Part shown: one piece after another, positions 6,272-64,000 of the stretch | Position numbering within the stretch: the stretch's first letter is position 1 | Layout of the letters: every line of letters begins with the position of its first letter | IMG/VR virus record: IMGVR_UViG_3300045988_147571 | Length of the DNA stretch: 64,000 nt | Source of the DNA: a virus | Reading direction: 5' to 3' (one strand) | Translations under genes and position numbers: made by a program | Notes under the pieces: model-generated | What the model saw: the letters and a program-made list of their open reading frames with translations, nothing else | The model's database searches: none | What the model was told of the DNA's origin: nothing

Positions 6272-6281
6272 AAATCTTTTC

Positions 6282-6689: not shown

Positions 6690-6696
6690 TTTCGTT

Positions 6697-12356: not shown

Positions 12357-12381
12357 ATTCTCACCCCTTTCACTTTTTAAA

Positions 12382-14568: not shown

Positions 14569-14640
14569 CGGGGTAGATGGGGTTCGAACCCATGAATGCT
14601 GGAGTCAAATTCCAGAGCCTTACCGCTTGGCTACTACCCT
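14569..14640 (-). tRNA. tRNA-Gln (anticodon UUG)
   Basis: rc: AGGGTAG TA GCCAAGCGGTAAGGCT CTGGA ATTTGAC TCCAG CATTC ATGGG TTCGAAC CCCAT CTACCCC G. Closely parallels the E. coli tRNA-Gln layout, including an unpaired 1-72 position. Confidence 0.85.
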
Positions 14641-17473: not shown

Positions 17474-17527
17474 AGTATACCATAGTCATTTCACCTTGTC
17501 AACACTTTTTTTACAAACTTGTTTATA
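17474..17527 (-). promoter_or_regulatory. second tandem promoter with the same upstream element, embedded in the ligA 3' end
   Basis: rc reads AAACAAGTTTGTAAAAAAAGTG TTGACA (17497-17502) aggtgaaatgactatgg (17 nt) TATACT (17474-17479). Confidence 0.65.
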
Positions 17528-22045: not shown

Positions 22046-23053
22046 TTATTTCAATAAACTATTTACATATTTAGCAGCTTCAGCATTAATGGGCTTTCGA
22101 ACGATGTATCTTTGTGTCGTGTCAGGTCGAGAATGATTCATTAATTGCTGTACATATGCAATGTCTCCTGTCTGATCATATAATAATGTAGCAAAAGTAC
22201 TTCTAAATTTATGAGGAGTAATATGTTTTTCAAAATCTGCGGTATATGCCTTAACTAAATCTCTCACTGATTTGTCAGTGATTCTTGTTCGTCTGTTAGA
22301 AATAAAAAGAGCATTACAATCTCTTTTATTCAAAAGTTCTGCACGTTTTATTACCCAATTTCTTAAAATATCCATACTATCATCATCAAGTTCACATTCA
22401 TAAGTGTTTCTGCGCTTATCAGTAACCCTAATAATCTTCTGATCCCAGAATATATCTTCCATATTAAGTTCTGTAAGCGCAGTAACACGAATACCAGTTA
22501 CCATAAGAAGAGTAAATATAGCAAGGTTTCTTTCCTTCCATGCTTCTCTTCTTGCGTTGGCCCTTTTTGTACCAATAGAATTATCATTTATTCTTTCAAC
22601 AACTTTTTTCAACTCTGCGGCTGTCATTGCAACCTGTTTAAGCGGATCTTTTACAGAAACTCTTTTTATGCCACAATCAAAAGGGCTCTCTGAAATCATT
22701 TTTCTGCTTAACAAATAATCAGCAAATGATTTTAATGCCGTATAAGTAGTTGCTTTAGCACTATCTGAACTATATCCTCCATCTCTTCCTCTTAAGCAAG
22801 AGAGATAAGAGTTTACATTGTCAATAGTCATTGCTCCATTACAATCTTCTATTGACTCTATAAACCCGTTTTCTTTCAAATAGTTCATAAACCTAACAGC
22901 CGTCATAGTATAATTTTGCGCAGTAAGATATTCGCATGAATTGAATAGACCATTATAATAACCAGTGAAATATTGTGGCTTATCCCTAAGCAATGTTCTC
23001 ATCTTGCTTTCTGATTTATATTTATGTTCTTCTCTTCCTTTCATGCTATTCAC
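22046..23053 (-). CDS. tyrosine recombinase / integrase
   Basis: LMVTGIRVTALTEL (Arg I), ITPHKFRSTFATLL (H-x-x-R), LMNHSRPDTTQRYI (His...Tyr). Confidence 0.88.
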   Translation of the reverse strand: MNSMKGREEHKYKSESKMRTLLRDKPQYFTGYYNGLFNSCEYLTAQNYTMTAVRFMNYLKENGFIESIEDCNGAMTIDNVNSYLSCLRGRDGGYSSDSAKATTYTALKSFADYLLSRKMISESPFDCGIKRVSVKDPLKQVAMTAAELKKVVERINDNSIGTKRANARREAWKERNLAIFTLLMVTGIRVTALTELNMEDIFWDQKIIRVTDKRRNTYECELDDDSMDILRNWVIKRAELLNKRDCNALFISNRRTRITDKSVRDLVKAYTADFEKHITPHKFRSTFATLLYDQTGDIAYVQQLMNHSRPDTTQRYIVRKPINAEAAKYVNSLLK

Positions 23054-34305: not shown

Positions 34306-35382
34306 TTACCCAACCATCATGACATCAACTGCATTTTTAAATTTTCTCAGCATTTCCGGATTAGAAGAAATGATTTTCTTTCTTCTTGCTCTTGCCTTTC
34401 CATGCTTATTAATATAACGAGTTTCTAAGTTGTGCCAATTAATTGGAGTCATTTCTCCCATCTTTTTGTATACTTTTCTATATGTAACCATTCCTCCATT
34501 GCTCTTATCTCCATATTTTTCTACAAGAGGCGCAATAATAGAATCTGTTGCATCCTGATTACAGATTGATTCATATTTCTCATACAGATCCCCTAATGCA
34601 GCACTAAAGATAGACCTCAGAGTATCGTTGGCGTAGACAACATCATAAGTACTAAATTTACTTACTGGATTATGCTTCTCTTTATAATCTTTCACTTCCT
34701 GATCCCAACAAATACCATAGTTTTTATTCATATACTTATATACGGTTTTCATTACAGAACCACGATCAGAAAATTTATCACAAGTAGTGAGAGCATCAAT
34801 CATCTGATACATATCATTTTTCCATTTTTTGCCTGGATCCTCTACTTTCTTTACAGGAAGAGGTGTCGTAACAGCTTTCTCCTGAACCATCATAGAAGCT
34901 AAACGTCCCATATCTTCAAAGATTTTATCTACTTTTCTTTCTAATACTTCAATTTTGTTATTGAAATCTGGCAACTGTAACTGGATAACATTCGAGTTAG
35001 TGACTTTCTTCTCAAGGAAAGCTGCTGCCAATACATCTTTTGCCTTGAGCTGATATGTTATAAGTTTTTCTGCTATCCCTGGTTGTTCCTTTCTCATAGT
35101 TGGAGTTACTGAGATTTTAGCCAACCATAATGGTAAATAATCTAACTGTAAGCACATAACATTCTGATTCCCGCCATTAGTAAGGAGGGTAAAATTTTGT
35201 ACCCCCTTTGAAATTACTGAATCCGTCTGCATTTTTCTTCTTTCATATTTAATCCGGTTATCATCTAAACCGATAGCTTCACACACCCAACAAGCACCAA
35301 CCCAAATATTTCCATCAGGATCCTGTGCTGCTTTAAGAATATCTCCGTTAAATTCTACTTCTTTTGCTGTTAATCTATCCAT
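34306..35382 (-). CDS. phage antirepressor-like protein (P22 Ant N-terminal-like, from memory)
   Basis: 358 aa. The pattern NIWVGACWVCEAIGL ... LQLDYLPLWLAKISV resembles antirepressor N-terminal domains. Confidence 0.5.
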   Translation of the reverse strand: MDRLTAKEVEFNGDILKAAQDPDGNIWVGACWVCEAIGLDDNRIKYERRKMQTDSVISKGVQNFTLLTNGGNQNVMCLQLDYLPLWLAKISVTPTMRKEQPGIAEKLITYQLKAKDVLAAAFLEKKVTNSNVIQLQLPDFNNKIEVLERKVDKIFEDMGRLASMMVQEKAVTTPLPVKKVEDPGKKWKNDMYQMIDALTTCDKFSDRGSVMKTVYKYMNKNYGICWDQEVKDYKEKHNPVSKFSTYDVVYANDTLRSIFSAALGDLYEKYESICNQDATDSIIAPLVEKYGDKSNGGMVTYRKVYKKMGEMTPINWHNLETRYINKHGKARARRKKIISSNPEMLRKFKNAVDVMMVG

Positions 35383-49829: not shown

Positions 49830-50393
49830 CTAGAAATTTCCTTCTATAATGTCCATGTCTGCATAGCTTACTACTTCGCCTGTGAACATGTTTACAGTGA
49901 GTTCATAATCCGGTCCCTTGACAGGAACGAACAGACATTTTTTAAGCTTCTTATTTCCTTTCCAGAGAAGAGAGAGTTCGTTTGTGCTTGGGTACATTAC
50001 TGGAATACATCCATAGTTAAACAATTCACTGTGACTGAGAATCAGTACAGCTGCTTTCTTTTCCTTTGCGGAAAGAGTTTTGTAGAACTTAGGGAAAAAA
50101 CTATAATCATACTCGCTAAAGAATTCTGTCAGTTTCTCTTTAACAAGGTTGATGATTTCCCTGTGCTTTGCTTTGCCTTCTGTAATGTCTAACCAAGTGT
50201 TGTTGTATTCTGCCCATTCCACAAGGTCAGAGATATACTGACAGAACTGTTCTGATGTGTAGCTGAAAGAAAATTCATTGAGTACATCTGTCCAGTTTCC
50301 ATTGTTACAGATGTAGAGTTCTCTGCCTAAAACAGATTTCAGCTCTACTGATGTGGTTTTCTTGTTGATGATTCTTGTAATAGTCTTTGTCAT
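49830..50393 (-). CDS. hypothetical protein
   Basis: ORF 49830-50429. The start MTKTITR at 50393 follows AGGAGGAAAATT. Confidence 0.55.
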   Translation of the reverse strand: MTKTITRIINKKTTSVELKSVLGRELYICNNGNWTDVLNEFSFSYTSEQFCQYISDLVEWAEYNNTWLDITEGKAKHREIINLVKEKLTEFFSEYDYSFFPKFYKTLSAKEKKAAVLILSHSELFNYGCIPVMYPSTNELSLLWKGNKKLKKCLFVPVKGPDYELTVNMFTGEVVSYADMDIIEGNF

Positions 50394-50493
50394 AATTTTC
50401 CTCCTGCCTTTTAAAGTGGCATAACTCATAGATTAATGCTCTATCAAGGTTTGACCTTGCCTTGTCTACTCCTCGTAGAAATAGAGCATCTGC

Positions 50494-50889
50494 TTAGATA
50501 TACATTACTCTCCGGAAATCGTGAAGCGGTTCCTTTGTACATTCATAATCAGTAGTATATGAACTGCTACCTAAACGACTGCCGCCAGAAGCACGTTTCT
50601 TTTTTCTGGAGTGACTCATCAGTGCAGCATAATTCTTATGGGATTTCTTCTGCTGAACTGACTTCCTATAGTAAGCCCACATGATTTCAGTGAGCTGATT
50701 CTTCTCGTAGGTGCGCACCCATCCCTGTTTAGGGAGATGCACGTATATCTCAATCTTCTTACTGCGAGAATGATTGAAGTCACTACATACTAGACATGCG
50801 CCATTGTCTAATGTCAGTACAACCGAGTTCATAGAAAAAGCTCTCCCGTAAACAAAGTCACGGGAGAGCAGATGATACACTCTATACAT
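50494..50889 (-). CDS. hypothetical protein
   Basis: 131-aa ORF on the coding strand. Confidence 0.5.
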   Translation of the reverse strand: MYRVYHLLSRDFVYGRAFSMNSVVLTLDNGACLVCSDFNHSRSKKIEIYVHLPKQGWVRTYEKNQLTEIMWAYYRKSVQQKKSHKNYAALMSHSRKKKRASGGSRLGSSSYTTDYECTKEPLHDFRRVMYI

Positions 50890-50898
50890 GATAACCTC

Positions 50899-51723
50899 CT
50901 ATGCAAAGTAGTGCTTAATTACAATGTTAGAGATGGTGGTAGCAAGGCCTGAATAGTCATACTGCATCTCTCCGGTCTTTTTGTCCTTCTTCTCCTTGAC
51001 TAATTTAGTCAACTGTCTGGAAGAGAATGACACTTTGCCAGAATCATCCTGTGAGAACTTATTCTTGAAACCTTTAATGTAGCAATCATTCAAGAGTTTC
51101 TTATCCTCTGCTGTCATCTTCACACGGGTCTTAGAGGTATAAGGTGTTTCAAAAGGTAGAGAGAATGTCACCTTGATAATTCGCTCCAATTCCTGTGAAG
51201 CTGTTTTATAAGCCTGTTTAACCTCTTTAGACATTACAAGATTACCATCTTCGCCAGCTTTAGAGGTTACGTGGATGGTTTCCAGTGCTTCATAGAGTTC
51301 AGGACTTTTGAAAGCTGGAATAATGGCATACTTCACCAGCTTAGAGTTGTCCCATGTGCCGAGCACACGAAGTACTGTACGCACTACGTCCTTGTCATTG
51401 CCAAAATGGTCAGCATTCTTCTGAGACATTGTGTCTACTACAAGTGTGTGGACTTCTTCTGTCTCAGCAGCAGACTCCTCCTGTGCAGCTTTTTCGTCCT
51501 TTAAGGACTGAAGCTGGACTTTCAGAGCTTCCAATTCTTCTGGCGTAGTGGTAGACTCAGCCTCTTCGCCTTTTTCAATCTTCTTCTCAAGAGAAACAAT
51601 CTGTCTGTCAAGTTCTTGAATGTTCATAAGTGCTGTCTCATGGGAAATAGCAGTCATAAACTCAGACCGCTGTTCTTCTGTGATATTCTCTGCCCAAAAA
51701 TTAATTGATAATGTAGTTGTCAT
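50899..51723 (-). CDS. hypothetical protein, first gene of the leftward block
   Basis: 274-aa ORF preceded by AGGAGGAAAATACT. Central acidic coiled-coil. Confidence 0.6.
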   Translation of the reverse strand: MTTTLSINFWAENITEEQRSEFMTAISHETALMNIQELDRQIVSLEKKIEKGEEAESTTTPEELEALKVQLQSLKDEKAAQEESAAETEEVHTLVVDTMSQKNADHFGNDKDVVRTVLRVLGTWDNSKLVKYAIIPAFKSPELYEALETIHVTSKAGEDGNLVMSKEVKQAYKTASQELERIIKVTFSLPFETPYTSKTRVKMTAEDKKLLNDCYIKGFKNKFSQDDSGKVSFSSRQLTKLVKEKKDKKTGEMQYDYSGLATTISNIVIKHYFA

Positions 51724-52419
51724 AGTATTTTCCTCCTAGTGCTTTTAAGGGAAAAGCATAACCATGATTTATAAACGTGTTTAGTGTGTAAAAAAATATG
51801 CACACTTTACAAGCCCATAGAATGAGCCTGTGAACTATGCATAAAAATTATAGCTGTCAGAGGTTATCGGTCATGCTGGCAGGCATTACCCTACACAAAG
51901 AACAACAGGTGTTACCCTGTCTGTCTGCCTCTATAACTTAACAGCTATCTCATATGTATTTCTCGCCCCTTGAAGTGTGGTTATGAATCGGGGGCAAGCA
52001 CCTTTTTTTTAGTAGGTGAATTATTTATTTTTAAGAACCTTTTACGGTTCGCCGTTCTTTCAAACTTCTGGAAGCTTACCACTGCCTAGAATATGGACAG
52101 AAGTTTGAAAGCCGTTCGCATAAGGGAATCACCCTCTTCTCTAGGCTTATGCCTAGAGGTCGCATACAAGTAATAAACTGATATGCTGGAGACTTTTCGG
52201 GACAGTCTCTTAAAATCCGCATATGAAATTTGTATAGGGAAAAACCGTAAAGGAAAAATTTTTTAATGGACAGAACATCCCCCTAGCACCTTCCCACCTG
52301 TTACCGCAGCTTTTGTATCTATCTAGGATAGCAACTACTTACTACGCAAGTGGTACAATGTTTTTTTATGAAATTGTCAAACCTGTAATCTTCTCAACTC
52401 CTCTCCTGTTGATGTACCT

Positions 52420-52448
52420 ATCATACTACGCAATAGGTAGTATGTCAA
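52420..52448 (-). promoter_or_regulatory. leftward promoter PL-1
   Basis: rc: ttttcaaaaaagtac TTGACA (52443-52448) tactacctattgcgtag (17 nt) TATGAT (52420-52425). Confidence 0.7.
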
Positions 52449-52550
52449 GTACTTTTTTGAAAAAGTTTTATTTGCTGCTTTAGGAATTTTTCTGTGGATT
52501 CCAGAACCACCGCTTGAACTTGCCGACCGCTTTTCCTTATCGACACGTTT

Positions 52551-52579
52551 ATACTACTACGCCATAGGTATTTTGTCAA
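52551..52579 (-). promoter_or_regulatory. leftward promoter PL-2 (paralogous to PL-1)
   Basis: rc: ttttcaaaaaactg TTGACA (52574-52579) aaatacctatggcgtag (17 nt) TAGTAT (52551-52556). Shares the ACCTAT(T/G)GCGTAGTA spacer and the A-rich upstream tract with PL-1. Confidence 0.6.
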
Positions 52580-52896
52580 CAGTTTTTTGAAAATATTTTT
52601 ATTTACACGTTTACAAAAGTCTGCAAACCCGCATAAATACAGGCTTTTTGGCATGAAAAAAAGTTTTTTCTGAAATAATTCCTTCCTATTAAAGCGAAAA
52701 AATGAGTTAGGGTGGATCTCCTGTTGCTATACAAGGTGTAGTATGTATTACACAATGTATAAATATACAGTATGTCAGACGTATGACAAGATGTGATTAT
52801 ATACGGATTGTAAGACGTATTAACAGAAGTAGTATAGATGAACTATACAAAGTAATACGTCTTATAAAAGATAATATGTCAGATAATATATATAGT

Positions 52897-53073
52897 TTAT
52901 TCAATTATGTCTGCAATTCGTGATTTAATGAAAGTTGACACTGCAATGTTGTTAGAATCACAATATTTTTTGAGTTTTTCGTATTGTTCAATTCGCAAAC
53001 TGACAGTTGCGGATTTCATATTCTTTTTATCCCACTCTTTAGCATATTTCTTGTTATATTCATAATTCGACAT
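52897..53073 (-). CDS. ribbon-helix-helix (Arc/CopG-type) DNA-binding protein, 58 aa (below track cutoff)
   Basis: AAGAGGTG lies upstream of the ATG at 53071-53073. MSNYEYNKKYAKEWDKKNMKSATVSLRIEQYEKLKKYCDSNNIAVSTFIKSRIADIIE. The strand (VSLRI) then helix then helix pattern is typical of RHH. Confidence 0.6.
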   Translation of the reverse strand: MSNYEYNKKYAKEWDKKNMKSATVSLRIEQYEKLKKYCDSNNIAVSTFIKSRIADIIE

Positions 53074-53105
53074 AAATATACACCTCTTTTCTATTCAATT
53101 TGTTG

Positions 53106-53121
53106 AATTGTAAATACAATT
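53106..53121. promoter_or_regulatory. palindromic operator candidate AATTGTA-AA-TACAATT
   Basis: Perfect 7-bp arms, ~35 nt upstream of the RHH gene start. The same half-site recurs at 53257-53275 (TACAAT n7 ATTGTA). Confidence 0.5.
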
Positions 53122-53299
53122 AAACATCTAGTAAGAATTATTAGATAATTTACTACAAAAGAAAACAATTGTCAGAAACATTGAGTTTTAAAGTAAAATT
53201 GTATTCATAATCTTAAAAACACTATGCTTCGATCAGAGAAACCAGACACAATTCAATACAATTCGCTATATTGTACGAATATTCTAATTACTTTAGTAC

Positions 53300-53364
53300 T
53301 GTAAAATTCTGTAGTATTATCACTGCAAAATTTTTCAATTGTAAAATTTCAATACTATAAAATT
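53300..53364. repeat. four direct iteron-like repeats (A)CTGTAAAATT
   Basis: TGTAAAATT 53300-53308, TGCAAAATT 53324-53332, TGTAAAATT 53340-53348, TATAAAATT 53356-53364. Spacing is 24/16/16 nt. Confidence 0.7.
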
Positions 53365-53803
53365 TTGCTACGGTACGAATGCTACGCACTGATTTATTAA
53401 AGTATACTAGGGCTATCCACTTTTACGCTTTAAAGTCCCAAAAACAGGGTTTGTGTATTACGATAGTTTTTACCATTGCACTATCCCCACCTTTCCTAGT
53501 ACTTAACTAGGTTTAGTTGAACGCATGTTCTTTTCGCTCTATTTTGCGCCCATTCTGTACCAAACCAGCTCTAAAATGTTAGAAAATAAGCATTTTCGAA
53601 CCTTTTACAGGAGGGGGTACTTATGCCCAGCGAGCCGTTCAGGTCCTGGATTTCCGCCCTATGCTGGTGTTTTTAGACACCAAGTCCAAATTTCGGATCA
53701 TGTTCCCAGATTCTCTGATCATCACATCTCTCTCACTCGTTTTTCAGATCAGAGTTTCTTCCTTATTTATATACGTTTCTCCGCTACACCTATTTTTATT
53801 TTT

Positions 53804-53877
53804 CTAAACAAGTTTGTAAATCACATGTTGACTTTTGGTCTAAACAATGTTATAATACACTTATCCCGAAAGGGATA
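53804..53877 (+). promoter_or_regulatory. rightward consensus promoter with AAACAAGTTTGTAAA element and 5' hairpin
   Basis: AAACAAGTTTGTAAA tcacatg TTGACT (53828-53833), 17 nt, TGt TATAAT (53851-56; extended -10). Followed by TATCCC GAAA GGGATA (53862-53877) and AGGAGG-ATG at 53898. Confidence 0.8.
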
Positions 53878-53897
53878 GAAAATCACAGGAGGCACAT

Positions 53898-54167
53898 ATG
53901 AACGACATTACTCTTATTGGAGTCAACATTACCTAAGAACTCCAAAAACAGCTAGATTCCCACAAATCAGCTATTTTATCTACTGCACCTCCAGAGGCAG
54001 TAAAAGGCTACGACCTAGGCGTACAAAACACTCTTCTACTCTTAGAATCACTTCTCTCATCTCTTGAACCCAACGAGTTCCTGATCAATACCACAGATTC
54101 CCACTTAAATGAGTATGACTATGATGAGCTTGAAGCTTTAGTCCGTAAACAAGTTTATAAATCATAA
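53898..54167 (+). pseudogene. 90-codon frame with strong SD, interrupted by an in-frame TAA at codon 13
   Basis: ACAGGAGGcacatATG. MNDITLIGVNIT * ELQKQLDSHKSAILSTAPPEAVKGYDLGVQNTLLLLESLLSSLEPNEFLINTTDSHLNEYDYDELEALVRKQVYKS *. There is no ATG/GTG/TTG in the 76 codons after the TAA (53934-53936). Confidence 0.5.
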
Positions 54168-54178
54168 GGAGCATTTAT

Positions 54179-55252
54179 ATGAAAACTTTTACTAATATCC
54201 ACACATTACTATACCACATTAATAATTCAATTTCAATCCCTCTTAGATACTCTATGATTGAAGGTACCACATGGTTCATCGGCAAAGATGTTGCAGCCAT
54301 CTGTGGGTACAAAGACACATGGCGAGCTATAAAATACCATGTTTCACCTGAGAATACTGATTATACCATTTTTAATTCCCGTAAACTTATCATCATCAAT
54401 TATGCAGGATTCAAAGAAATAGACCCTACTGAAGGACATCTAAACTGGTTTCTGAAAGAAACTAAGTCAGACTCGCCCACTGTGTTCAATCATCCAGAAT
54501 TTGGCACTGTCAGAATAATAGAGGTTTCCGGAAAACCCTGGTTCGTAGGTAAGGATGTAGCTACCGCCTTGGGATATGCAAATCCTACAAAGGCTGCTAG
54601 AGAGAAAGTTTTCCAAGAGGATCGAGGGATGTCCAAAATAGACACCCCCTCTGGAGCACAACAAATGACTATTATTAACGAATCCGGACTTTACTCCCTT
54701 ATCCTCAGCAGCAAGCTTCCATCAGCAAAAGAGTTCAAGCACTGGGTTACAGCAGAGGTACTCCCTTCTATCCGTAAGACAGGGGGCTATGTTAACCCAT
54801 CACAATCCGATCTTTTCCTAGATACCTATCTCCCATTTGCAGATCAGAACACTCGACTTCTTTTTAAGACTACTCTTGATACTATCCAGCAACAGAACAA
54901 TACTATCCAGCAACAGAATCACACTATTTCACATCAAGAAGACATCATTCGTAATCTTACATCAGACATTCCATTAGCAGATAAACGTCAGATCCTCAAT
55001 AGAATTGTACGCTTCGGAGGAAGTCCTCAAACACGTTGGCCATTCCTCTACAGAGAGTTCGACAATAAGTTCCATATGAATACTAAAGTACAGCTTGAAC
55101 ATTACAATGAGACGCATAAACCTAAGCTGCAGAACCGTTTAGATTACATAGAGCACATTGGTATGTTCAATGATTTAGCTGAAATAGCATGTGTAATCTT
55201 CGGTCCAGACATCGAGAAATTGTCTGCTCAGTATTATGAAATCTGTAAGTAA
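54179..55252 (+). CDS. Bro-N domain protein (two Bro-N-like segments) / prophage antirepressor family
   Basis: TTWFIGKDVAAICGY and FGTVRIIEVSGKPWFVGKDVATALGYANPTKAA ... GLYSLILSSKLPSAKEFKHWVTAEVLPSIRKTGGY. Confidence 0.85.
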   Translation: MKTFTNIHTLLYHINNSISIPLRYSMIEGTTWFIGKDVAAICGYKDTWRAIKYHVSPENTDYTIFNSRKLIIINYAGFKEIDPTEGHLNWFLKETKSDSPTVFNHPEFGTVRIIEVSGKPWFVGKDVATALGYANPTKAAREKVFQEDRGMSKIDTPSGAQQMTIINESGLYSLILSSKLPSAKEFKHWVTAEVLPSIRKTGGYVNPSQSDLFLDTYLPFADQNTRLLFKTTLDTIQQQNNTIQQQNHTISHQEDIIRNLTSDIPLADKRQILNRIVRFGGSPQTRWPFLYREFDNKFHMNTKVQLEHYNETHKPKLQNRLDYIEHIGMFNDLAEIACVIFGPDIEKLSAQYYEICK

Positions 55253-55356
55253 ATTTTGATTCTACAGTGAGAGGCTTACAACTTTACAGTGAGCCTCTTA
55301 CAAAAGAAATTTGATCCATATACTCAAATAAAATCATTATATAGGGGGTAAGAAAG

Positions 55357-56223
55357 TTGATTGACACCACAAAAATTTTACCGGGTCAAGAATTTAAAAA
55401 TATGCAGGAACTGTCAGTAGCACTTACTGGTCAGAAGATGCCAGCCGGTAAAGGTTATGTTCTACAGCAGGAGAAATTTAAACTGTATTTCTCATGGAAA
55501 AAAGTTACAGGATCTCATAAATTGATCATTGATGAAGTATATAAAGAACCAAAGACTAAAACTAAACGCAAACAGAAAGAGTATTGTCCACATGGAAAGT
55601 ATAATGCAGCAATCTATGCAAATTTACAGCAATTAGAACTCAATAAAAAATATTCTGTGACAGATCTCTATGAACTCTTAGGGTTTACGAGTGACAGATT
55701 TACGAGACCAAAATATTTTTTAGATTGTGTGAATGCAACAGAACTCTCTCTTTCTTCTTATAGATATTTTCATAAAAAAATAAATTGTATCATTGCACAA
55801 ATATTATATATAAATTTGAGGAAGTTTGAAGAAAAAGGCTGTATCTCATATCATATGGACTATGCCTATACATTCAGAGAAGGGCATAAGCCAGTAGACA
55901 TTCCAATAGACTATATGGAAGATATAAAAGCTCAAGCTTTAGCACAAACTTCATATAAAGATGAGTGGTCTGTCTTACATAGTTCCAAAGCAAAAGAATA
56001 CACTGATTTTATTCTTAAAAGATTGGAGCCGCTAGGAGTAAAAAGATATACAAAATGTTACGTATTTACTGAAATTAAGCAGTTTAATACTCTTCCGTTA
56101 TCAGACCCTCATATTCTAAACAATTTAATAATACAAAAGTTGAAAGATGCAAGTTCCAAATATGATGTGCTGAATAACAAAAAAATGAATTCAATAATTG
56201 ACACCGCTGTCAGGTTGCAATAG
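55357..56223 (+). CDS. hypothetical protein (TTG start)
   Basis: 288-aa ORF with GGGGGT upstream. No motif recognised. Confidence 0.55.
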   Translation: MIDTTKILPGQEFKNMQELSVALTGQKMPAGKGYVLQQEKFKLYFSWKKVTGSHKLIIDEVYKEPKTKTKRKQKEYCPHGKYNAAIYANLQQLELNKKYSVTDLYELLGFTSDRFTRPKYFLDCVNATELSLSSYRYFHKKINCIIAQILYINLRKFEEKGCISYHMDYAYTFREGHKPVDIPIDYMEDIKAQALAQTSYKDEWSVLHSSKAKEYTDFILKRLEPLGVKRYTKCYVFTEIKQFNTLPLSDPHILNNLIIQKLKDASSKYDVLNNKKMNSIIDTAVRLQ

Positions 56224-56511
56224 AGCGAAAGGCGAAGCCTGAGGTCTGAACACATGAAAGTTTTTTCAGCGCTACTTTCTACACTCGGCGGTTAAGCGCC
56301 TCGCCTAAAGCAGCTGCTTCTGAAAAAATTTTGCGTTCAGACGGTGATTGTTTTTTGTTACACCAAAAAAATATAGTAATTATTTTTTATATAAATAATA
56401 ATTATTGTTTTTTACAGGTGTAATAAATCCAACTCGAACTGATTGAACGAATGAGTGAAGCGAATGAGAGAAAGAAAGTAAGACCCTCATAGCTCGCTAC
56501 CAAAGAAAGGA

Positions 56512-58158
56512 ATGATTACAATAGCAAAGCAGAAAAAATGTAAAAGATACTTATTCAAGCTCCACAGTGAACGTCTTCGTAGATCACGCTGGAAGCTAGA
56601 ATATCCATTAGAGGAAGCTCTAAACACAGAAGACATTATTTCTCTGTCTGATAGCCAGATTCTTAGATTCATTGATGAACTCAACGGAGACACCAGTGAA
56701 GCCAGAGAAGAAGAAGCTTCTTATATAAAGAAAGAAATCAAGCGTCTCAAAAAATCTGATTCTTCTAAGAAAGATACTCTCATAGCAAATCTCTATAAAA
56801 GATTCTATAATCTTCAATTTGTTCCAGATTACATGTGCCTGATCATTGATAAAATGTCTGATTATGACAGAGCCAACAAAGGTTTCTCTATCAATGGAGT
56901 CAAATATCATAGGTTCCTAGGTACCAACGGGGGTATAAAAAATTCTACTATTGTTTATGTCTCTGAAAGACTATATCCCCAGCTCTATGAGCGTCTCTGC
57001 TGTGGCAGGAACCTAGAACAAAAATTTGTACCAGCTAAACTTGAAGCATATCAGGCTCTGATCTGTTCTGGCAGCATTCCAGTGAGTATGCCAAAAGGGG
57101 TTATAGTTGTCCCTGACTGCGTTACTCATTTTAAAGAAGACATTATTCGTGTGGATGATTCCCAGTCTGATGAACCAATAGTAGAATTCCTCAAGGACCA
57201 AGAAATAGAGCTTACAGAATCAGACGGTTACGGAATCATGCTTCCATCACTCTCTTACCGCTGGGCTAGAGAACTTGACGAAGAAGAAGATTTTTTATCT
57301 GGCTGTAATCTCAGAGGGCTTCCATGGACAAAGGGCATGGTTTTCACAATGGACTACTTAGCTTTTGGGGAATCTATAGCGAAAAACTTCTATATAAAAG
57401 ATGCCTGGGGAGATATGAGAGACATCAGAGAATCTGAATTGATTATTACTACTTCTATGCTTAAACTATGGGACTCCTACTCTTCTTTCGAAGATTACTG
57501 GTCCAACATAGAAAAATATCATTATCAGATATCTATAGCCAAGACTGCTCCTGCTAAATTGGATGAGTACAGAAGCACTAATTACCAGTTCCTGCAGAAT
57601 TACCATCTTACACCGGAAGAAGTAACTGAATTGGTCCGTCCTACAATAGAAGAAATTCAAGAAATCCTTGGATTAGATTACAGGAAGTCACTCCTATTCC
57701 TGAGAGGAACCAATCTAACAGAAGATTCCTACATTGATGAAGAGCCATATATCAACGCTCTCATGATTGAGCCGCAGATGATTCATGATCCCTACATCAG
57801 AGACAGAATCTACAATATGATAAAGAAAAAAATCAGGCAAGCCAAGATAGGCGTACTCAAAGTGAGAGGTAACTTTGCCATCATTGGTGGTGATCCGTAT
57901 AGCCTGATGCAGAGTATCTTTGGTTTGCCTGTTACAGGACTACTCCACTCTGGAGAATGTTGGCATAAACATTGGCTTGATCGAGGAGTCAGCGAGGTCT
58001 GCTGCTTCAGAGCACCTATGACAAGCAAATACAATGTGCGTAAGCTTAAGATAGTAGGGACTCCTGATATGACTTATTGGTACAGATATATAAATACATG
58101 TATGCTGCTGAATTCCTGGGATTCTACTGCGGAAGCCCTCAACGGCAGCGACAAGGAT
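56512..58158 (+). CDS. YonO/RdRP-like single-subunit RNA polymerase, exon 1 (549 codons)
   Basis: Ends ...AEALNGSDKD at the proposed 5' splice site (U at 58158). Joined to exon 2 it gives GSDKDGDLYF, i.e. a D-x-D-G-D metal-binding loop. Confidence 0.6.
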
Positions 58159-59149
58159 GAACAATCTCTGTCCTTGTAAAACTGGGTGAACTCGTACATG
58201 CGAGGTGTTTGGCATCAGCCAAGCTAACGGGGGACACTTATGAGTTTTGGTTGGCTTTTAAGCAATCCCGTGCTAAAAGTTATGGAATCTTTCTATATGG
58301 GAAGGAGAACCGAAATGAATGAATTAGTAAATACCACAGAACAGACACCAATAGAGATAGCTCTTGGTGTAGATGCAGATGGAATGACAACTGCTAAACA
58401 ACTTTATAAGTTTTTAGAATTAAATTCTACGAACTATAAACGCTGGACTACAAAGAATATAGTACAAAATCCTTACGGAGAAGAAAATGTTGATTATTTC
58501 CCATTCGTCCTTCATGACGAATGCGGTGGACAAGCTACTACTGATTACAAAATCACAGCAAACTTTGCTAAAAAGCTTTCCATGATGACTTCTTCTCCAA
58601 AAGGAGAAATTGCCAGAGAATATTTTCTTTCCTGTGAAAAAGTCATAAAAGAAAATATTGCTGCGCTAAAGAAGGAAAATCAGAAATTAAAACTGCTCAC
58701 TGTCAGTAAATCCCAGAAATTCTCTGCAATGTATCCTAAATTTGACTTACTGACAAAATCGCTACATATATCTATGAAAGAACTGTACAAGAAAATCTTC
58801 GACACAATGCAGTCTGAGCGTGGCATCGACTTAACAAGCAAGACACTTCAATACTGCTATGAGCATAATCTTTCAAACTGCTACACAATGACAGTTATAC
58901 AGGAAGATCCGCAGCTCTTCATATGTATGTACGAAATAGTTGATGATATGATTGCAAACTTAAAGTGATTTTTTACAAAGGGTTCCATAGCTTATGTGTA
59001 ACGACTATCGAAAGCATAGCTTAAGAGAAAGACTTAAGTGAAGAAGCAAGTAGAGTACTTTATAAGTGTAACTCTTATAGAGGAAGCGCCCAGTAGTATT
59101 ACTTTGGTAATAGAGGTATTACTAATGAGATAGTCTAGTATATAAATTG
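58159..59149 (+). mobile_element. group I intron (991 nt) carrying an ORF
   Basis: P1: exon ACAAGGAU (58151-58158) pairs with the internal guide GUCCUUGU (58170-58177), with the splice-site U opposite G. P7-like pairing GACTAT (59003-59008) / ATAGTC (59130-59135). The context TAACGACTATC ... GAGATAGTCT matches what I recall of the T4 td intron core. The last intron nt (59149) is G. Confidence 0.8.
58315..58968 (+). CDS. intron-encoded AntA/AntB-type (antirepressor-like DNA-binding) protein
   Basis: GGAAGGAGAA lies 5 nt before the ATG at 58315. TTDYKITANFAKKLSMMTSSPKGEIAREYFLSCEK resembles the AntA domain. No GIY-YIG/HNH/LAGLIDADG motif seen. Confidence 0.6.
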   Translation: MNELVNTTEQTPIEIALGVDADGMTTAKQLYKFLELNSTNYKRWTTKNIVQNPYGEENVDYFPFVLHDECGGQATTDYKITANFAKKLSMMTSSPKGEIAREYFLSCEKVIKENIAALKKENQKLKLLTVSKSQKFSAMYPKFDLLTKSLHISMKELYKKIFDTMQSERGIDLTSKTLQYCYEHNLSNCYTMTVIQEDPQLFICMYEIVDDMIANLK

Positions 59150-60235
59150 GGAGATTTATATTTTACAACCAACAATGAAATACTTTTGAAACATACAGAA
59201 AACTTACCACCAATCTACTGCATTCAGCGCAAAGGAAATAAGGTTGTCCCAACTGAAGCAGATATGATACAAGCTAACAAAGGATCTTTCGGTGATGCCA
59301 TTGGTTCTATTACTAATGTTATTACTTCACAGATATGTCTACAGGCAAGGTTCCCAAAAGACAGTGAGGAATATAAGGTCTTAGACTATAGGATACTGTG
59401 TGGACAAATGTTCCAGCAGAATGCTATTGATCGTGCTAAGGGAATTATTGCCAAACCTATGCCTAAGCACTGGTATGATAACAATTATAATCGCATAGAA
59501 GAATCAGATACACCGGAAGAAATAGCTAAAAAAGAATTCAATCAAAGGATCTGTGCAGATAAGAAGCCATACTTCTTCATCTATAACTACCCTACTCTCA
59601 TGAAGGAATACAAAGACTACATCAAAACTTCAGATGCCGTGAGTAGGTCCAGATTTAATATTCCTCTGGAAACATTGTTAGCTGCTGAAGAATTAACTGA
59701 AGAACAGGCAGAGTTTCTCAAATTCTATAAAGAGTTCTACCCAGTCAATGCAGAAACCTGTGTAGTTAATGAACTCTGTTGGGAAATTGAAAAGCAGCTT
59801 GCAGACGTAAAAGAAAGTAAGGTACCGTTTGACAGCTCTATTCTGAAGTCGGATGCCTCTTATACTGAAAATGAAAAGATGTTCATAGGATATATTTATG
59901 ACAAGTATAACAAAACCTATGCAAACAGAATGAGCCGCCACAGCTCTGTATATGAAGATACTTCTTTAACACCCATTGGGATGACTTTTGAATCAGAGTG
60001 TGCTGAATATGTGCCAAATGCAGAAAAGCTTTGCAACATTCTGGTTGACTTAGGATATAACACAAAAAAGGGTAAGACTTTCGTCTGGGAAATGTCCGGG
60101 GATACCATTATTGATAATCTTCTCTCTCGAACAGATGGTTATGCTCAGTTTCCTGTAAAGGATCCAGACGGTGATATAGAGTTTTGCGGTGAACACTTCT
60201 CAATGAAAAAAGTAAAAATGAAAGGCGAAGAATAA
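59150..60235 (+). CDS. YonO/RdRP-like single-subunit RNA polymerase, exon 2 (361 aa)
   Basis: Begins GDLYFTTNNE. The track ORF 59147-60235 only has a TTG one codon upstream and no SD. Confidence 0.6.
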   Translation, partial: GDLYFTTNNEILLKHTENLPPIYCIQRKGNKVVPTEADMIQANKGSFGDAIGSITNVITSQICLQARFPKDSEEYKVLDYRILCGQMFQQNAIDRAKGIIAKPMPKHWYDNNYNRIEESDTPEEIAKKEFNQRICADKKPYFFIYNYPTLMKEYKDYIKTSDAVSRSRFNIPLETLLAAEELTEEQAEFLKFYKEFYPVNAETCVVNELCWEIEKQLADVKESKVPFDSSILKSDASYTENEKMFIGYIYDKYNKTYANRMSRHSSVYEDTSLTPIGMTFESECAEYVPNAEKLCNILVDLGYNTKKGKTFVWEMSGDTIIDNLLSRTDGYAQFPVKDPDGDIEFCGEHFSMKKVKMKGEE

Positions 60236-61098
60236 TGGATTTAATACTCAATGAAAAACAATATGTAGAAAAAATGTTAGAACTTGGTGATTGCAGCCCT
60301 AAAGATTTAGGAGCAAACATAGCTCTTCTAACCAGATATATGTATCAGGAAAAATATACTCAGAAAGAAATTTATAATGGTATAGAAGAATTTGCTTCAA
60401 AAGTAGATTCTGATTTTGATATCAATAACTGGTACTCATTCATAGACAAATGTATCAGTAAAGCTAAGAAGAGAGATCTGTTGAACATTGACTATATACC
60501 TATTACGCAGAAAGAATTAGATACTATCAAGGAAATCAAGAATCCTGCCAGGGAAAGACTTGCATTCACTCTTTTAGTCATTGCCAAGTTTAATAATCTA
60601 AAATCAGAAACCAACAATAACTGGATCAATTATTCTATGGACGTATATTTCAACCTTGCCAGAGTAACTTGTAAAGTAGATGATCGTCCGTACATGATTT
60701 ATGACTTAAAGGAATTGGGGTTAGTTGAAGTGAGTAAAAAAATAACTCGCTTCAATATAAGAATCACATTTGTTGATAATGAGTCTGATCCGGTACTTAA
60801 AATTACAGATATGCGTGAATTGGGCTATCAATATCAGAACTTGGGTCCGAAGTCTAAAATAAAATTGTGTAAGCGCTGCGGGAAGCCTTATAAAGTAAAG
60901 AATTCCAAAGCAAGAAGTGCTTTCTGTTCCGACTGTCAGAGCCAAGTAGAATCAAAACCAAAAGTCATCAAATGTGAATGTTGCGGGAAAGATTTTTTAA
61001 CTTCTCCTTATAACACTCGTGCAACATTGTGTATACAGTGTCATACACTTCAAAGGAATGAATTAAATAAACTTGCCATGCGTAAAAGACGACAGTAA
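60235..61098 (+). CDS. hypothetical protein with C-terminal zinc fingers
   Basis: 287 aa. CKRCGKPY...CSDCQ...CECCGKDF...CIQCH. ATGA-type overlap with the polymerase stop. Confidence 0.6.
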   Translation: MDLILNEKQYVEKMLELGDCSPKDLGANIALLTRYMYQEKYTQKEIYNGIEEFASKVDSDFDINNWYSFIDKCISKAKKRDLLNIDYIPITQKELDTIKEIKNPARERLAFTLLVIAKFNNLKSETNNNWINYSMDVYFNLARVTCKVDDRPYMIYDLKELGLVEVSKKITRFNIRITFVDNESDPVLKITDMRELGYQYQNLGPKSKIKLCKRCGKPYKVKNSKARSAFCSDCQSQVESKPKVIKCECCGKDFLTSPYNTRATLCIQCHTLQRNELNKLAMRKRRQ

Positions 61099-61186
61099 AA
61101 GACCAACGGTGGGTAGTAGAGGGTTCTTTGTAGGTGTTTGAGGGCGTTTTAGGGGATTTGTGTACAGACCCTCAAAAGTTCAGTCT

Positions 61187-61217
61187 TCGCAAATGCGCTC
61201 TACAGGCGCGTTTGCGA
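61187..61217 (+). terminator. GC-rich terminator-like hairpin
   Basis: TCGCAAATGCGC tctacag GCGCGTTTGCGA (12-bp stem, one G-U) followed by GATTTCGTTGATT. Confidence 0.6.
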
Positions 61218-61258
61218 GATTTCGTTGATTGAGTATATATGAAAGGGAAGATATAAGG

Positions 61259-61489
61259 ATGAAAAACAATAATAGACTTTATTTTGCCAGACAGAAATTT
61301 TTAGGAAAATGTCCTGTCTGTGGGAAAACATTGAAAAAAGTAGATGGAGTAAATATCCTCCGCTGTAACAACGCAGCCTGTGCCGGAGTGACTGTGAGAA
61401 GAAATGGGGAGTCTTCTCAGGAACCTTACTACAGGATGCTGAATGACAGGGGTATGGAAATCTACGAACATCTATTTAATAAAAAATAA
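61259..61489 (+). CDS. small zinc-ribbon protein
   Basis: MKNNNRLYFARQKFLGKCPVCGKTL...CNNAAC. I prefer the ATG at 61259 over the TTG at 61229. Confidence 0.55.
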   Translation: MKNNNRLYFARQKFLGKCPVCGKTLKKVDGVNILRCNNAACAGVTVRRNGESSQEPYYRMLNDRGMEIYEHLFNKK

Positions 61490-61502
61490 ATTATAGAAAG
61501 AG

Positions 61503-61682
61503 TTGATTATTATTAAACCGATTTCTAAGAAAGAAATTGAAAAACTAATGGACAAAGGTATCATTAGAAACACACACAAAGGCTACATTAACAAAAAAGG
61601 ATATCATGTAGGATATTACAAGACCTCAGGCAATAACAGATATATTGAGGACTATTATGCTGATAAAGCAAAATCACTGTAA
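61503..61682 (+). CDS. 59-aa ORF (TTG start; below track cutoff)
   Basis: LIIIKPISKKEIEKLMDKGIIRNTHKGYINKKGYHVGYYKTSGNNRYIEDYYADKAKSL. An alternative start is the internal ATG (MDKG...). Confidence 0.4.
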   Translation: MIIIKPISKKEIEKLMDKGIIRNTHKGYINKKGYHVGYYKTSGNNRYIEDYYADKAKSL

Positions 61683-61696
61683 AGGAGTGCCTAACT

Positions 61697-62908
61697 ATTA
61701 CTAAATTTTATGATACGAATGCTCTCCTGAATCTTCAGGAAGAGGCATTCAAAGAAAGATTCTTTATCTCTGATGAAACTCTTAGAGAAATCGAAAATAT
61801 CAAAACATCCTCTCGGAAAGATGAGGATATCAAATACAAAGCTAGACATATAGCTCGTCTTTTAGATCAGAATCATGATCAGTATTCCGTAATAAATTAT
61901 AATTTTGAAATGGAAAAACAGCTGTTAAATTTCGAATTGGATCCAGTTAGACCAGACAATAGAATTGTTTTTAGTGCTTATACTCTATCCAAATCTCAAG
62001 ACATTGTATTCATTTCAGATGATTTGTGCTGCAAAAATATTGCAAGGAAAGTCTTTAACCTGCCAGTGTATGGAATCGTAGAGCCTACTAACGAGATATA
62101 TAAAGGATATAAAGTAATTAAAGGTGATACTAATGCTATCAATCAGGCTATGGCTGAACTAGATTATTCAACTTGGCATATCAATGAATATCTCATTATT
62201 GAAAATACCGATGACGGCACTACTAAAGAAATGCGCTATGACGGTCAGGGGTTTGTGGCATTAAAACTGCCATCTTCCAAATTTATTAAAGCAAAAAACT
62301 CTTTACAACGTTGTGCATTAGATATTTTGAATAACCCAGATATCACTATTGCGGCTATTCTCGGTGGTTACGGCAGCGGAAAAACTTATCTTTCTATGCA
62401 AATGGCATTATACAATGTAAAGGAGAAAGGCAGAAATAGTAAAATCTTAGGTGTACGAGAAGTTTCTGGCGAAGGTAAAGAGATCGGTTTTCTGCCAGGA
62501 GATATGGAAGATAAAGTCGGAAGATTCTTTGAACCACTCTCTCAGTCTCTTAATGGTGGAGAATTTGAATTACAGAGCTTAAAAGTGTCTGGTGTGTTAG
62601 ATACTAATGTACCGTTCTTTATGAAAGGTACTACTTATAATGACACTGTTATCCTCTGTGATGAAGCAGAAGATTTATCAGAAAGTCAAATTAAACTTAT
62701 TGGTACACGACTCGGAGAGAACAGTAAAATTTATCTTGCAGGTGATTATAAACAATCCCTGTTAAGTAAAACGATTAATAATCCTCTCATTAAAATGTGC
62801 AATGAGTTTAAAGGGAATGAAAAATTTGGATGTATCTATCTTGGAGAAGATGTGCGATCAGAAACCAGTAAACTCTTCGCTGATCTTTTCGAAAAGGATC
62901 ACTTCTAA
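61697..62908 (+). CDS. phoH: PIN-domain + PhoH-like ATPase (YlaK-type), probable ATT start
   Basis: Walker A LGGYGSGKTYLS and Walker B VILCDEAEDL. The frame is open upstream of the annotated ATG (61910) and encodes the PIN N-terminus (I)TKFYDTNALLNLQ. AAGGAG (61682-61687) lies 9 nt before the ATT at 61697. There is no ATG/GTG/TTG in that stretch. Confidence 0.8.
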   Translation: MTKFYDTNALLNLQEEAFKERFFISDETLREIENIKTSSRKDEDIKYKARHIARLLDQNHDQYSVINYNFEMEKQLLNFELDPVRPDNRIVFSAYTLSKSQDIVFISDDLCCKNIARKVFNLPVYGIVEPTNEIYKGYKVIKGDTNAINQAMAELDYSTWHINEYLIIENTDDGTTKEMRYDGQGFVALKLPSSKFIKAKNSLQRCALDILNNPDITIAAILGGYGSGKTYLSMQMALYNVKEKGRNSKILGVREVSGEGKEIGFLPGDMEDKVGRFFEPLSQSLNGGEFELQSLKVSGVLDTNVPFFMKGTTYNDTVILCDEAEDLSESQIKLIGTRLGENSKIYLAGDYKQSLLSKTINNPLIKMCNEFKGNEKFGCIYLGEDVRSETSKLFADLFEKDHF

Positions 62909-62935
62909 AAATATAAGGATTACAAGGAGAAACAT

Positions 62936-63553
62936 ATGGAAGAATTATTTGATTTTCCAATTATGAAAAGTGGAGTAGATGAATTAGTTGCTGACATCAT
63001 CAAAAGTAACTATGACAATCGTAGATTAATTATCAATGATAAAATCAATAATAATCTGTTAGAGTCCATCTGTTTATATATTTTGAAATATAATCAGGAA
63101 GATAAAGATGTTCCTGAAGATAAAAGAAAGCCTATTTGGATTATTTTAAATTCAGTAGGTGGAGTCGTAAACTTCGGAATGGGACTCATTGATTGTATTA
63201 AACATAGTATCACACCTGTTTATTGCTTAATAATTGGAATGGCTGCAAGTATGGCAAGTTATATTCCAATGGTCTGTGATAAATCATATATCTTTCCTAA
63301 TAGTACAATTTGTATTCATGACGGACAAACCGGTATTATGCAGACTTCCAGAAAAGCAAATGACATCATGAATTTTTATAATAAATGTGATGAACGATTA
63401 GCTGAACTTGTATATGCCAATACCTCTATTACCAAAGATTTTTTAGACGGTATTGCTGATCGAGAATATTATATGTTCCCAGAAGAAGCTAAAGAATTGG
63501 GAATTGTTGATACTATTGTTGGTGTCGATTGCCCTATTGATGAAATATTATGA
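62936..63553 (+). CDS. ClpP-family serine protease
   Basis: ILNSVGGVVNFGMGLIDCIK and LIIGMAASMASYI parallel ClpP INSPGG...G..IYD and GQAASMG (catalytic Ser). Confidence 0.75.
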   Translation: MEELFDFPIMKSGVDELVADIIKSNYDNRRLIINDKINNNLLESICLYILKYNQEDKDVPEDKRKPIWIILNSVGGVVNFGMGLIDCIKHSITPVYCLIIGMAASMASYIPMVCDKSYIFPNSTICIHDGQTGIMQTSRKANDIMNFYNKCDERLAELVYANTSITKDFLDGIADREYYMFPEEAKELGIVDTIVGVDCPIDEIL

Positions 63554-63894
63554 AATATTCCAAAAAAGAATTGATTGCTAAGGTTTCAGAAAAAACAGGC
63601 TATCAAGAAGAAAATATAGCTGAAATATATGAAGCTTTAGAAGAAACTGTGTATGATTTACTCCTGTCAGCAAATGAACATAAGGATGTAGAAATTCGAC
63701 TGTTCACAGGATTTGGTATGTTTAGTAAATTAGTACCAAGTCATGAGAAAAAGATGCCTGACGGAGAAATTAAATCAATAGAACCCACTTTAAAATTCTC
63801 TGCACGTTATAGTGCTCGTTGGAGAAAAGATAATATCAAAGTGTACAGAGAAGCTTTAAAACTATGGGAAAGAGTGAAAGGAAGAAAAGGATGA
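63550..63894 (+). CDS. HU/IHF-like DNA-binding protein
   Basis: KKELIAKVSEKTGYQEENIAEIYEALEETVYDLL ... FTGFGMF parallels the HU N-terminal helices and beta-arm start. Confidence 0.65.
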   Translation: MKYSKKELIAKVSEKTGYQEENIAEIYEALEETVYDLLLSANEHKDVEIRLFTGFGMFSKLVPSHEKKMPDGEIKSIEPTLKFSARYSARWRKDNIKVYREALKLWERVKGRKG

Positions 63895-64000
63895 ATGGCG
63901 TAGAAATTAAAACAACAACTACTACTCAGATGAAGATCAAAAAAGCTACCATTGATGAACAGGGGGCTGTTTATGTAGATGGCGAGGTAGTTGATCTTAT
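63891..64000 (+). CDS. hypothetical protein, 5' fragment (runs off window)
   Basis: ATGA overlap with the HU-like stop. MNGVEIKTTTTTQMKIKKATIDEQGAVYVDGEVVDL... Confidence 0.4.
   Translation, partial: MNGVEIKTTTTTQMKIKKATIDEQGAVYVDGEVVDL

Follow-up and report, generated by a model that had tools for sequence, protein, structure and literature searches.

How does a phage make a working RNA polymerase from a gene that is interrupted in the middle of its catalytic loop? This question is raised by a locus in the 64,000-nucleotide (nt) stretch of viral DNA IMGVR_UViG_3300045988_147571 (the window). Here, at positions 56512-60235 on the plus strand, two open reading frames (ORFs) each carry part of what resembles the SPbeta phage RNA polymerase YonO. 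We conclude with high confidence that the locus encodes a single-subunit two-barrel RNA polymerase of the YonO family, and that this protein can be made only once the messenger RNA has lost a group I intron by splicing. The enzyme family itself is already known: the YonO-like proteins and their kinship to RNA-dependent RNA polymerases (RdRPs) and to multi-subunit RNA polymerases have been described (PMC2919709, PMC5467207), and in Clostridium phage c-st the pieces of the gene already carry annotations as homologs of the N- and C-terminal parts of YonO. Of moderate interest beyond this are the position of the intron within the catalytic loop, its AntA-type ORF and a conserved zinc-ribbon partner gene. 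The split gene has the following parts.

Exon 1 of the polymerase gene: 56512-58158, plus strand; amino acids (aa) 1-549, with D238, R268, K274, R500-x-P502, D547 and D549.
5′ half of the DxDGD Mg-binding loop: 58150-58158, plus strand; GAC AAG GAT, encoding D547 K548 D549, with U58158 at the 5′ splice site.
Group I intron: 58159-59149, plus strand; 991 nt, ending in G59149 (omega-G) and absent from an intronless homolog.
Exon 2 of the polymerase gene: 59150-60235, plus strand; aa 550-910 and the stop codon, starting GGA GAT (G550 D551).

Read separately, the two frames break off at the loop. The first ORF, whose ATG is preceded by the ribosome-binding site AAAGGA, runs from 56512 to 58179 and gives 555 aa ending in ...ALNGSDKD-EQSLSL*. 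The second (59147-60235) opens at a TTG codon as M-GDLYFTT and carries the third catalytic Asp (D551) together with the invariant residues G601, N605, D643 and K646. When 56512-58158 is joined to 59150-60235 the frame is kept and a protein of 910 aa plus stop results, in which GSDKDGDLY occupies residues 545-553 and the splice falls between D549 and G550. A preliminary description of this DNA had proposed such a joined protein, and its coordinates, its length of 910 aa and its GSDKDGDLY motif are all exact. The same description held that removal of an intron restores the polymerase, and this is borne out by an uninterrupted homolog that reads across the same junction. This homolog, P0001 (900 aa, 92% identity, 99% coverage), was found in a search of 5.8 billion proteins. 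Its DNA reads AAT GGA GCC GAC TGC GAT GGA GAT TTA across the junction, and its collinearity with the window extends to 58158 and resumes at 59150.

Thousands more uninterrupted homologs of about 900-950 aa were found in the same search, as were exon-1-only calls of 552-560 aa (P0003-P0020 and P0022) from phages broken at the same point. A chance motif is unlikely, because P0001 reads across the junction, the Asp triad is invariant and only the joined protein matches PF05183 (see below). An intein was also considered and is ruled out by the stop codon six codons past the junction. Megablast of 56000-61000 found no near-identical match among deposited phages.

Next, we asked to which family the joined protein belongs. 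It scores 28.4 bits against Pfam PF05183 (RdRP), above the gathering cut-off of 23.8 (E 8.9e-7, residues 120-574), and neither half alone matches Pfam. Many homologs bear a precomputed PF05183 match, and PHROG 8308 is matched over its full length (E 3.7e-88). Searches of deposited phages by tblastn gave the following matches.

Clostridium phage c-st: 38% identity; the c-st gene is annotated as a YonO homolog.
Six Enterocloster phages: 36-37% identity.
Bacillus phage BUCT082: 31% identity.
SPbeta yonO: 26% identity over residues 119-608, E 7e-19.

Aligned with YonO by hhalign, a profile of 59 homologs gives a probability of 99.89% (E 4.3e-33) over 640 columns spanning YonO 130-790, and F-D-N-D-G-D of YonO falls on S-D-K-D-G-D of the window protein. 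Homology with YonO extends over nearly all of the joined protein. In a search of PDB sequences, the single protein and the close-homolog profile were both without a match. Only a profile of 111 family members reached RDR2 (E 9e-6) and QDE-1 (E 1.6e-4), with E-values ranging from 9e-6 to 2e-4. HMMER aligns its SDGxG, R..KG and GxDxDGD elements residue on residue with SDGIG...IRYGGYKG and GGDLDGDL of RDR2. By profile search the family comprises 2924 representative clusters (50% identity) at E<=1e-3, and 980 at E<=1e-30. Most of its database entries are unnamed, 'hypothetical' or called 'RNA-dependent RNA polymerase', and the cultured relatives infect Clostridium and Enterocloster.

The fold points the same way. 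An AlphaFold2 model of the spliced protein, built on the 59-homolog alignment, reached a predicted local distance difference test score (pLDDT) of 89.6 and a predicted template modelling score of 0.84. Foldseek matched it to the following PDB structures.

Maize RDR2: E 9e-16.
QDE-1: E 1.5e-15.
Arabidopsis RDR2: E 4e-12.
Thermus phage P74 gp62 and P32 gp64 RNA polymerases: E about 1e-5.
crAss-like phage phi14:2 gp66: E 1.4e-3, rank 25.
Bacterial beta′: a weak tail of matches.

All 24 PDB matches at E<=0.001 are two-barrel polymerases, as is rank 25 (phi14:2 gp66). The viral structure library BFVD returned phage 'RdRP' entries, a P23-45 protein, crAss polymerases and LEF-9. Judged from the Foldseek matches of this predicted model, a fold with two double-psi beta-barrels is supported.

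Eight residues are invariant in two-barrel polymerases, in Qde1 D709, R738, K743, R962, P964, D1007, D1009 and D1011, and the Rpb1 counterparts of R962 and P964 are R446 and P448 (PMC2919709). In an alignment of 111 diverse family members including YonO, D238, K274, R500, P502, D547, D549 and D551 are invariant and R268 is conserved in at least 90%; the three Asp are also invariant in the 59 close homologs. D238 sits in SDGYG and K274 in TKG, and R500-A-P502, 47 residues ahead of D547, is assigned to the R-x-P motif by its spacing and invariance. The spacings are close to those of Qde1 (D-R 30 vs 29, R-K 6 vs 5, R-D 47 vs 45). Each of the eight defining residues of the two-barrel polymerases is conserved in the protein predicted from the joined exons. 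D106, R134 and K143 were tried as the beta-like barrel residues; they are not conserved in the wide alignment and were replaced by D238, R268 and K274. The preliminary description had named a YonO- or QDE-1-like two-barrel single-subunit RNA polymerase with profile similarity to PF05183 and YonO, and had pointed to structure prediction as a check. The score above the PF05183 gathering threshold, the 99.9% hhalign probability to YonO and a model resembling RDR2, QDE-1 and phage two-barrel polymerases all agree with it.

What kind of template would such an enzyme use? YonO is a processive DNA-dependent RNA polymerase with a strong preference for DNA templates, and mutation of its Asp triad abolishes activity (PMC5467207). 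It is made on induction and transcribes 37 SPbeta late genes, with a start site upstream of yonK (PMC5467207). The window protein is likewise a single chain of about 100 kDa with the DxDGD triad, R-x-P and the SDGxG / R..KG motifs. It differs from YonO in sequence (26% identity, with no alignment for the N-terminal ~120 residues here or the N-terminal ~130 of YonO), in lacking the C-terminal C4 zinc ribbon of YonO (aa 798-825) and in its intron, which yonO does not have. By analogy with YonO, the window enzyme is most likely a DNA-dependent late-gene RNA polymerase.

We consider it quite improbable that the enzyme instead copies RNA or single-stranded templates like QDE-1 and RDR2, for example to make antisense or double-stranded RNA or to amplify a regulatory RNA. 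The names and nearest structures suggest as much: the Pfam family is called 'RdRP', RDR2 and QDE-1 are the top structural matches, the sole PDB sequence matches are RdRPs, and GenBank labels the homologs in Enterocloster phage PMBT24 and in Thomasclavelia phages 'RNA-dependent RNA polymerase'. QDE-1 and RDR2 indeed share the two-barrel catalytic core and the eight invariant residues at near-identical spacing. However, they are silencing enzymes that work on RNA or single-stranded DNA, they have no phage context, and at 11-14% identity they are far more distant than YonO (E 4e-33 over 640 columns), the sole characterised bacterial or phage member of the clade and a late-gene transcriptase with a strong preference for DNA templates (PMC5467207). 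In addition, the gene order is as in SPbeta and no RNA-silencing partners were seen near the polymerase gene.

Single-chain two-barrel DNA-dependent polymerases are also found in other phages, namely Thermus phages P23-45 (gp64), P74 (gp62) and P32 (gp64) and crAss-like phi14:2 (gp66). They are detectable by fold, but their similarity to the window protein is much weaker (E 1e-5 to 1e-3) and their sizes differ. The phi14:2 gp66 structure is of a virion-packaged polymerase, whereas the window holds no sign of packaging for its own enzyme.

We then turned to the insert that separates the exons. Helices P3, P4, P6, P7 and P8 were assigned by reading the sequence by hand, and the principal elements are these.

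Internal guide sequence AUCUCU-GUCCUU: 58164-58175, plus strand; forms the P10 and P1 pairings.
P6 5′ strand AAGUUAUGGAA: 58277-58287, plus strand; 11 base pairs with 58983-58993, the P6 loop enclosing the intron ORF.
P6 3′ strand UUCCAUAGCUU: 58983-58993, plus strand.
P7 5′ strand GACUAU: 59003-59008, plus strand; within the R-like element AACGACUAUC, pairs with 59130-59135.
P7 3′ strand AUAGUC: 59130-59135, plus strand; within the S-like element GAGAUAGUCUAG.

In P1, intron GUCCUU (58170-58175) pairs with AAGGAU at the end of exon 1 (58153-58158), which leaves a U58158.G58170 wobble at the splice site. In P10, intron AUCUCU (58164-58169) pairs with GGAGAU at the start of exon 2 (59150-59155). 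The P4 stem pairs ACGGGGG with UCCCGU, and P9 amounts to just a few bases in the window copy.

We compared seven introns at this D|G site, from the window, the related loci L014, L012, L013 and L008, and phages c-st and CB473P3. Exon 1 ends in ...GAU| and the 3′ junction reads G|GGAGA in all seven. Where the exon codon is UGU in place of AAG, the guide is GUCAC in place of GUCCUU, and P1 is kept (GUGAU/GUCAC). Across the five alignable sequences, four helices of the 3′ core are 96.7% paired, compared to 33-44% when the partners are slid (P7 itself is invariant). Changes on both sides occur in 17 of 30 3′-core pairs, a level reached by none of 500 shuffles.

Homology is found in known phages as well: window positions 58996-59089 share 72-78% identity with stretches of 84 phages that carry no annotation. 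One of the 84 was inspected, Bacillus phage Moonbeam; there the match lies between the two halves of the DNA polymerase gene, after an HNH ORF, and is part of a stretch that Rfam scores as Intron_gpI. The match belongs to a group I intron that interrupts the Moonbeam DNA polymerase gene. The 5′ part of the window intron (58159-58314) had no blastn match among phages, and the 3′ core had none in E. coli genomes. The 991-nt insert has the anatomy, the covariation and the sequence homology of a phage group I intron, and its splicing is predicted.

Several points weigh against the reading of a YonO-type polymerase made by splicing. The locus is known here from its sequence and a predicted model. 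Its best structural and Pfam matches are RNA-dependent enzymes, and the presumed template preference is taken from YonO, with which it shares just 26% identity. Even for SPbeta, no promoter of YonO is known (PMC5467207), and the presumed late operon would lie outside the window. Finally, the Rfam model RF00028 gives the window intron 14.3 bits (E 0.82) at a cut-off of 50. As a control, the ORF-bearing DNA polymerase intron of Moonbeam reached 29.1 bits with RF00028, also under the cut-off; the model is therefore insensitive to this class of intron. Rfam scans found nothing in 50000-64000 and nothing in three related loci.

It is very improbable that the gene is dead, with the insert a non-splicing mobile insertion and the two ORFs remnants or separate working fragments. 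Such a view could draw on the sub-threshold Rfam score, on gene callers that give two ORFs (as in the exon-1-only P0003-P0020) and on the intron ORF, which has no recognisable nuclease and could mark a decaying element. Nonetheless, both exons are intact and in frame and keep all invariant residues. P1 and P10 are an exact match to the ends of the two exons; in relatives, P1 changes in step with the exon codon, and compensatory substitutions are seen in the helices of the ribozyme. Exon 2 begins its frame at a TTG and lacks a ribosome-binding site of its own; and because the catalytic loop itself is split, separate fragments could form no active site without ligation.

The distribution of the insert among relatives marks the intron of the YonO-type gene as a mobile element: near-identical phages either do without it or carry the same ribozyme with another ORF. 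In L001 (92% identity) the gene is intronless and the target reads GGAGCCGACTGCGATGGAGATTTAATG. In L008-L011, exon 1 is 97% identical and a homologous ribozyme carries an HNH_3 ORF elsewhere in the RNA. L014, L012 and L013, whose polymerases are 96%, 72% and 71% identical to that of the window, hold an AntA-type ORF at the same site. The introns of c-st and CB473P3 at this D|G site (317 and 433 nt) are free of ORFs.

A second intron site lies at about residues 641-643 (QQNAID), beside the invariant D643 and K646, and is empty in the window. It is occupied in Enterocloster phages and in a metagenomic relative (L004, 2073-3194; L006, 3060-3521; L012, 2513-2795); one copy at this site in the Enterocloster phages carries an HNH_3+AP2 ORF. 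Among the 150 best family representatives, 12 fragment ends fall at profile positions 545-550 and 9 at 637-643, and both regions are recurrent split points. Separately, six exon-1-type fragments (P0182, P0190, P0214, P0217, P0227 and P0253) stop exactly at NGxD, whose Asp is the first of the catalytic triad and lies two codons ahead of the window splice site; these ends may mark a third insertion point or may be contig ends. A gene resembling GIY-YIG / I-HmuI_NUMOD homing endonucleases follows the HU-like gene in L008 (13525-13683), L009 (13669-13683) and L010 (13519-13683). The lineage of these near-identical phages appears to be rich in mobile endonuclease genes.

The closest cultured relatives, at 37-38% identity, are c-st (CST179/CST178) and the Enterocloster phages CB457P2, CB473P3 and PMBT24. 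The gene is broken at exactly the same D|G position in c-st and CB473P3, and c-st and CB457P2 share the overlapping zinc-ribbon partner downstream; the Enterocloster phages differ in having a second intron near residue 641-643. Their records, as that of c-st, label the pieces hypothetical or 'YonO homolog N-ter/C-ter', not an intron-split gene.

The intron carries a reading frame of its own.

Intron ORF, 217 aa: 58315-58968, plus strand; ribosome-binding site GGAAGGAGA upstream, AntA domain PF08346 (E 1e-13).

PHROG labels this protein an anti-repressor. Its model (pLDDT 79.8) consists of an N-terminal alpha/beta AntA domain, a long helix and a C-terminal helical bundle, and its best Foldseek match in the PDB (E 0.27) is to winged-helix DNA binders. 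The protein was considered as a homing nuclease, and no nuclease domain was found by Pfam, PHROG or Foldseek; sister introns bear HNH_3 ORFs in its place. The AntA-type intron ORFs form a family of 46-100% identity, found at this site even where the surrounding polymerase genes share no more than about 71% identity. The phage has further anti-repressor-like genes of the Bro-N / Ant type, at 54179-55252 on the plus strand and at 34306-35382 on the minus strand. This suggests that the N-terminal domain of the intron ORF is a common phage module, maybe captured locally.

Mobile introns have been linked to phage RNA polymerase genes before (PMC2919709), and phage group I introns in other genes offer close parallels: that of the DNA polymerase gene of Moonbeam (Bastillevirinae), T4 td, and the PhiPA3 intron with its HNH endonuclease gp210 (PMC11620839). 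Like the window intron, they sit in the most conserved catalytic codons. In Moonbeam, T4 td and PhiPA3 the resemblance includes a U.G pair at the 5′ splice site, a terminal G, an ORF looped out from a peripheral helix, and presence/absence polymorphism among close relatives. Unlike these three, the window intron resides in a YonO-type gene, its AntA ORF is without HNH, GIY-YIG or LAGLIDADG, and its P9 is reduced. In the jumbo phage PhiPA3, the intron-encoded homing endonuclease acts against the co-infecting phage PhiKZ (PMC11620839). In the library of papers that was searched, we found none linking YonO-type genes with group I introns, and the PMBT24 genome paper does not discuss the polymerase (PMC11035940).

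Directly downstream, the polymerase gene overlaps a second gene.

287-aa protein with a C4 zinc ribbon: 60235-61098, plus strand; its ATG overlaps the polymerase stop codon (TAATG).

Four invariant Cys form the zinc ribbon. In c-st (E 4e-23) and CB457P2 (E 6e-18) the partner is conserved and overlaps the polymerase gene in the same way, and, by gene layout, L002, L012 and L013 have an equivalent overlapping gene. The ribbon weakly resembles the C-terminal ribbon of YonO (aa 798-825; BLASTP E 0.059, hhalign 34%, E 4e-4), a region of YonO not covered by the alignment with the window polymerase. As a lead from sequence comparison, the 287-aa protein may be a detached accessory subunit.

The genes around the polymerase recall those around yonO. 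In SPbeta, yonR and others run leftward, and yonP-yonO-yonN(HU)-yonK... run rightward. The window mirrors this layout, with a divergent leftward block, the polymerase gene heading a rightward block, and an HU-like gene after it. The rightward order is a Bro-N gene, a 288-aa gene, the polymerase gene, the 287-aa zinc-ribbon gene, and PhoH-like, ClpP-like and HU-like genes; a YonG_N gene stands further downstream in a 69%-identical relative. A promoter is predicted at the head of this block.

Sigma-70-like promoter TTGACT-17-TATAAT: 53828-53856, plus strand; extended -10 TG, 11 of 12 matches, heading the rightward block.

By its match to the consensus, this is a candidate host RNA polymerase promoter for the polymerase gene.

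Accounting for these features together, we propose that host RNA polymerase would transcribe the rightward block from a promoter of the sigma-70 type. The intron would then splice itself out, its AUCUCU-GUCCUU guide aligning both exons, and the ligated messenger RNA would be translated into a DNA-dependent RNA polymerase. Like YonO in SPbeta, this enzyme would transcribe a late operon, which by synteny would begin past the HU-like gene, off the right end of the window, and it may act with the translationally coupled 287-aa zinc-ribbon protein. The sigma-independent mode of transcription suggested in the preliminary description would likewise follow by analogy with SPbeta YonO. It is highly unlikely that the polymerase serves DNA replication as a primase-like RNA synthesiser, as the PhoH-like, ClpP-like and HU-like genes of the block, the absence of adjoining structural genes within the window and the lack of a known target promoter might suggest, since yonO deletion in SPbeta silences only 37 late genes (PMC5467207), relatives have separate primases (e.g. 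PMBT24 ORF106; PMC11035940) and YonO is highly processive, unlike primases.

Recognition of the intron means that genes of this family can be annotated as one protein and not as two or three fragments, and the recurrent intron sites in the catalytic loop are a clear case of an essential viral polymerase being targeted by mobile introns. To our knowledge, YonO-type enzymes are the smallest known relatives of cellular multi-subunit RNA polymerases, and SPbeta YonO is the only one studied, its promoter and any cofactors being still unknown. For the missing specificity factor, the conserved zinc-ribbon protein encoded by the overlapping gene offers a concrete candidate.

A more far-reaching proposal, which we regard as rather doubtful when taken as a whole, combines a two-part minimal transcription machine with a detached zinc-ribbon subunit, an AntA mobility protein and a late switch gated by splicing. 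If this were true, the 287-aa subunit would be the counterpart of the ribbon that YonO carries in cis at its C-terminus, possibly a missing promoter-recognition or initiation factor. The AntA protein, which always occurs in this intron at the D|G site, would act in intron mobility or as a maturase and represent a new type of such proteins, one that lacks a classical nuclease fold, and splicing within the Mg-binding loop would gate the switch to late transcription.

The leftward block (1-54 kb) contains NAD-salvage genes, an NAD-dependent ligase, an integrase and four tRNAs, and is not structural. Genes resembling those for NAD synthetase, nicotinamide phosphoribosyltransferase, NAD-dependent DNA ligase and tyrosine integrase lie on the minus strand at 4633-8154, 17491-19536 and 22046-23053. 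By their sequence similarity, the genes of this block suggest an NAD-salvage module and a temperate lifestyle. Two further features belong to the leftward strand.

Four tRNA genes: 12381-14640, minus strand; Leu-tag, Asp-gtc, Met-cat and Gln-ttg.
Second near-consensus promoter of the sigma-70 type: 52448-52420, minus strand; 11 of 12 matches, facing opposite to 53828-53856.

The opposed promoters, in the divergent region between the two blocks, resemble an early control region.

Between this region and the polymerase gene, the preliminary description had placed a GC-rich structured element immediately upstream of exon 1. This did not hold up: the stretch at about 56224-56345 is 48% GC, its fold is no better than that of shuffled sequences (z-score -1.32), and it is without an Rfam match. 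Imperfect inverted repeats (56244-56270 with 56320-56342) enclose the 48% GC stretch. Just beyond it, an AT-rich palindrome at 56354-56427 with 37-nt arms, TTTGTTACACC...GGTGTAATAAA, could be an operator or a promoter element.

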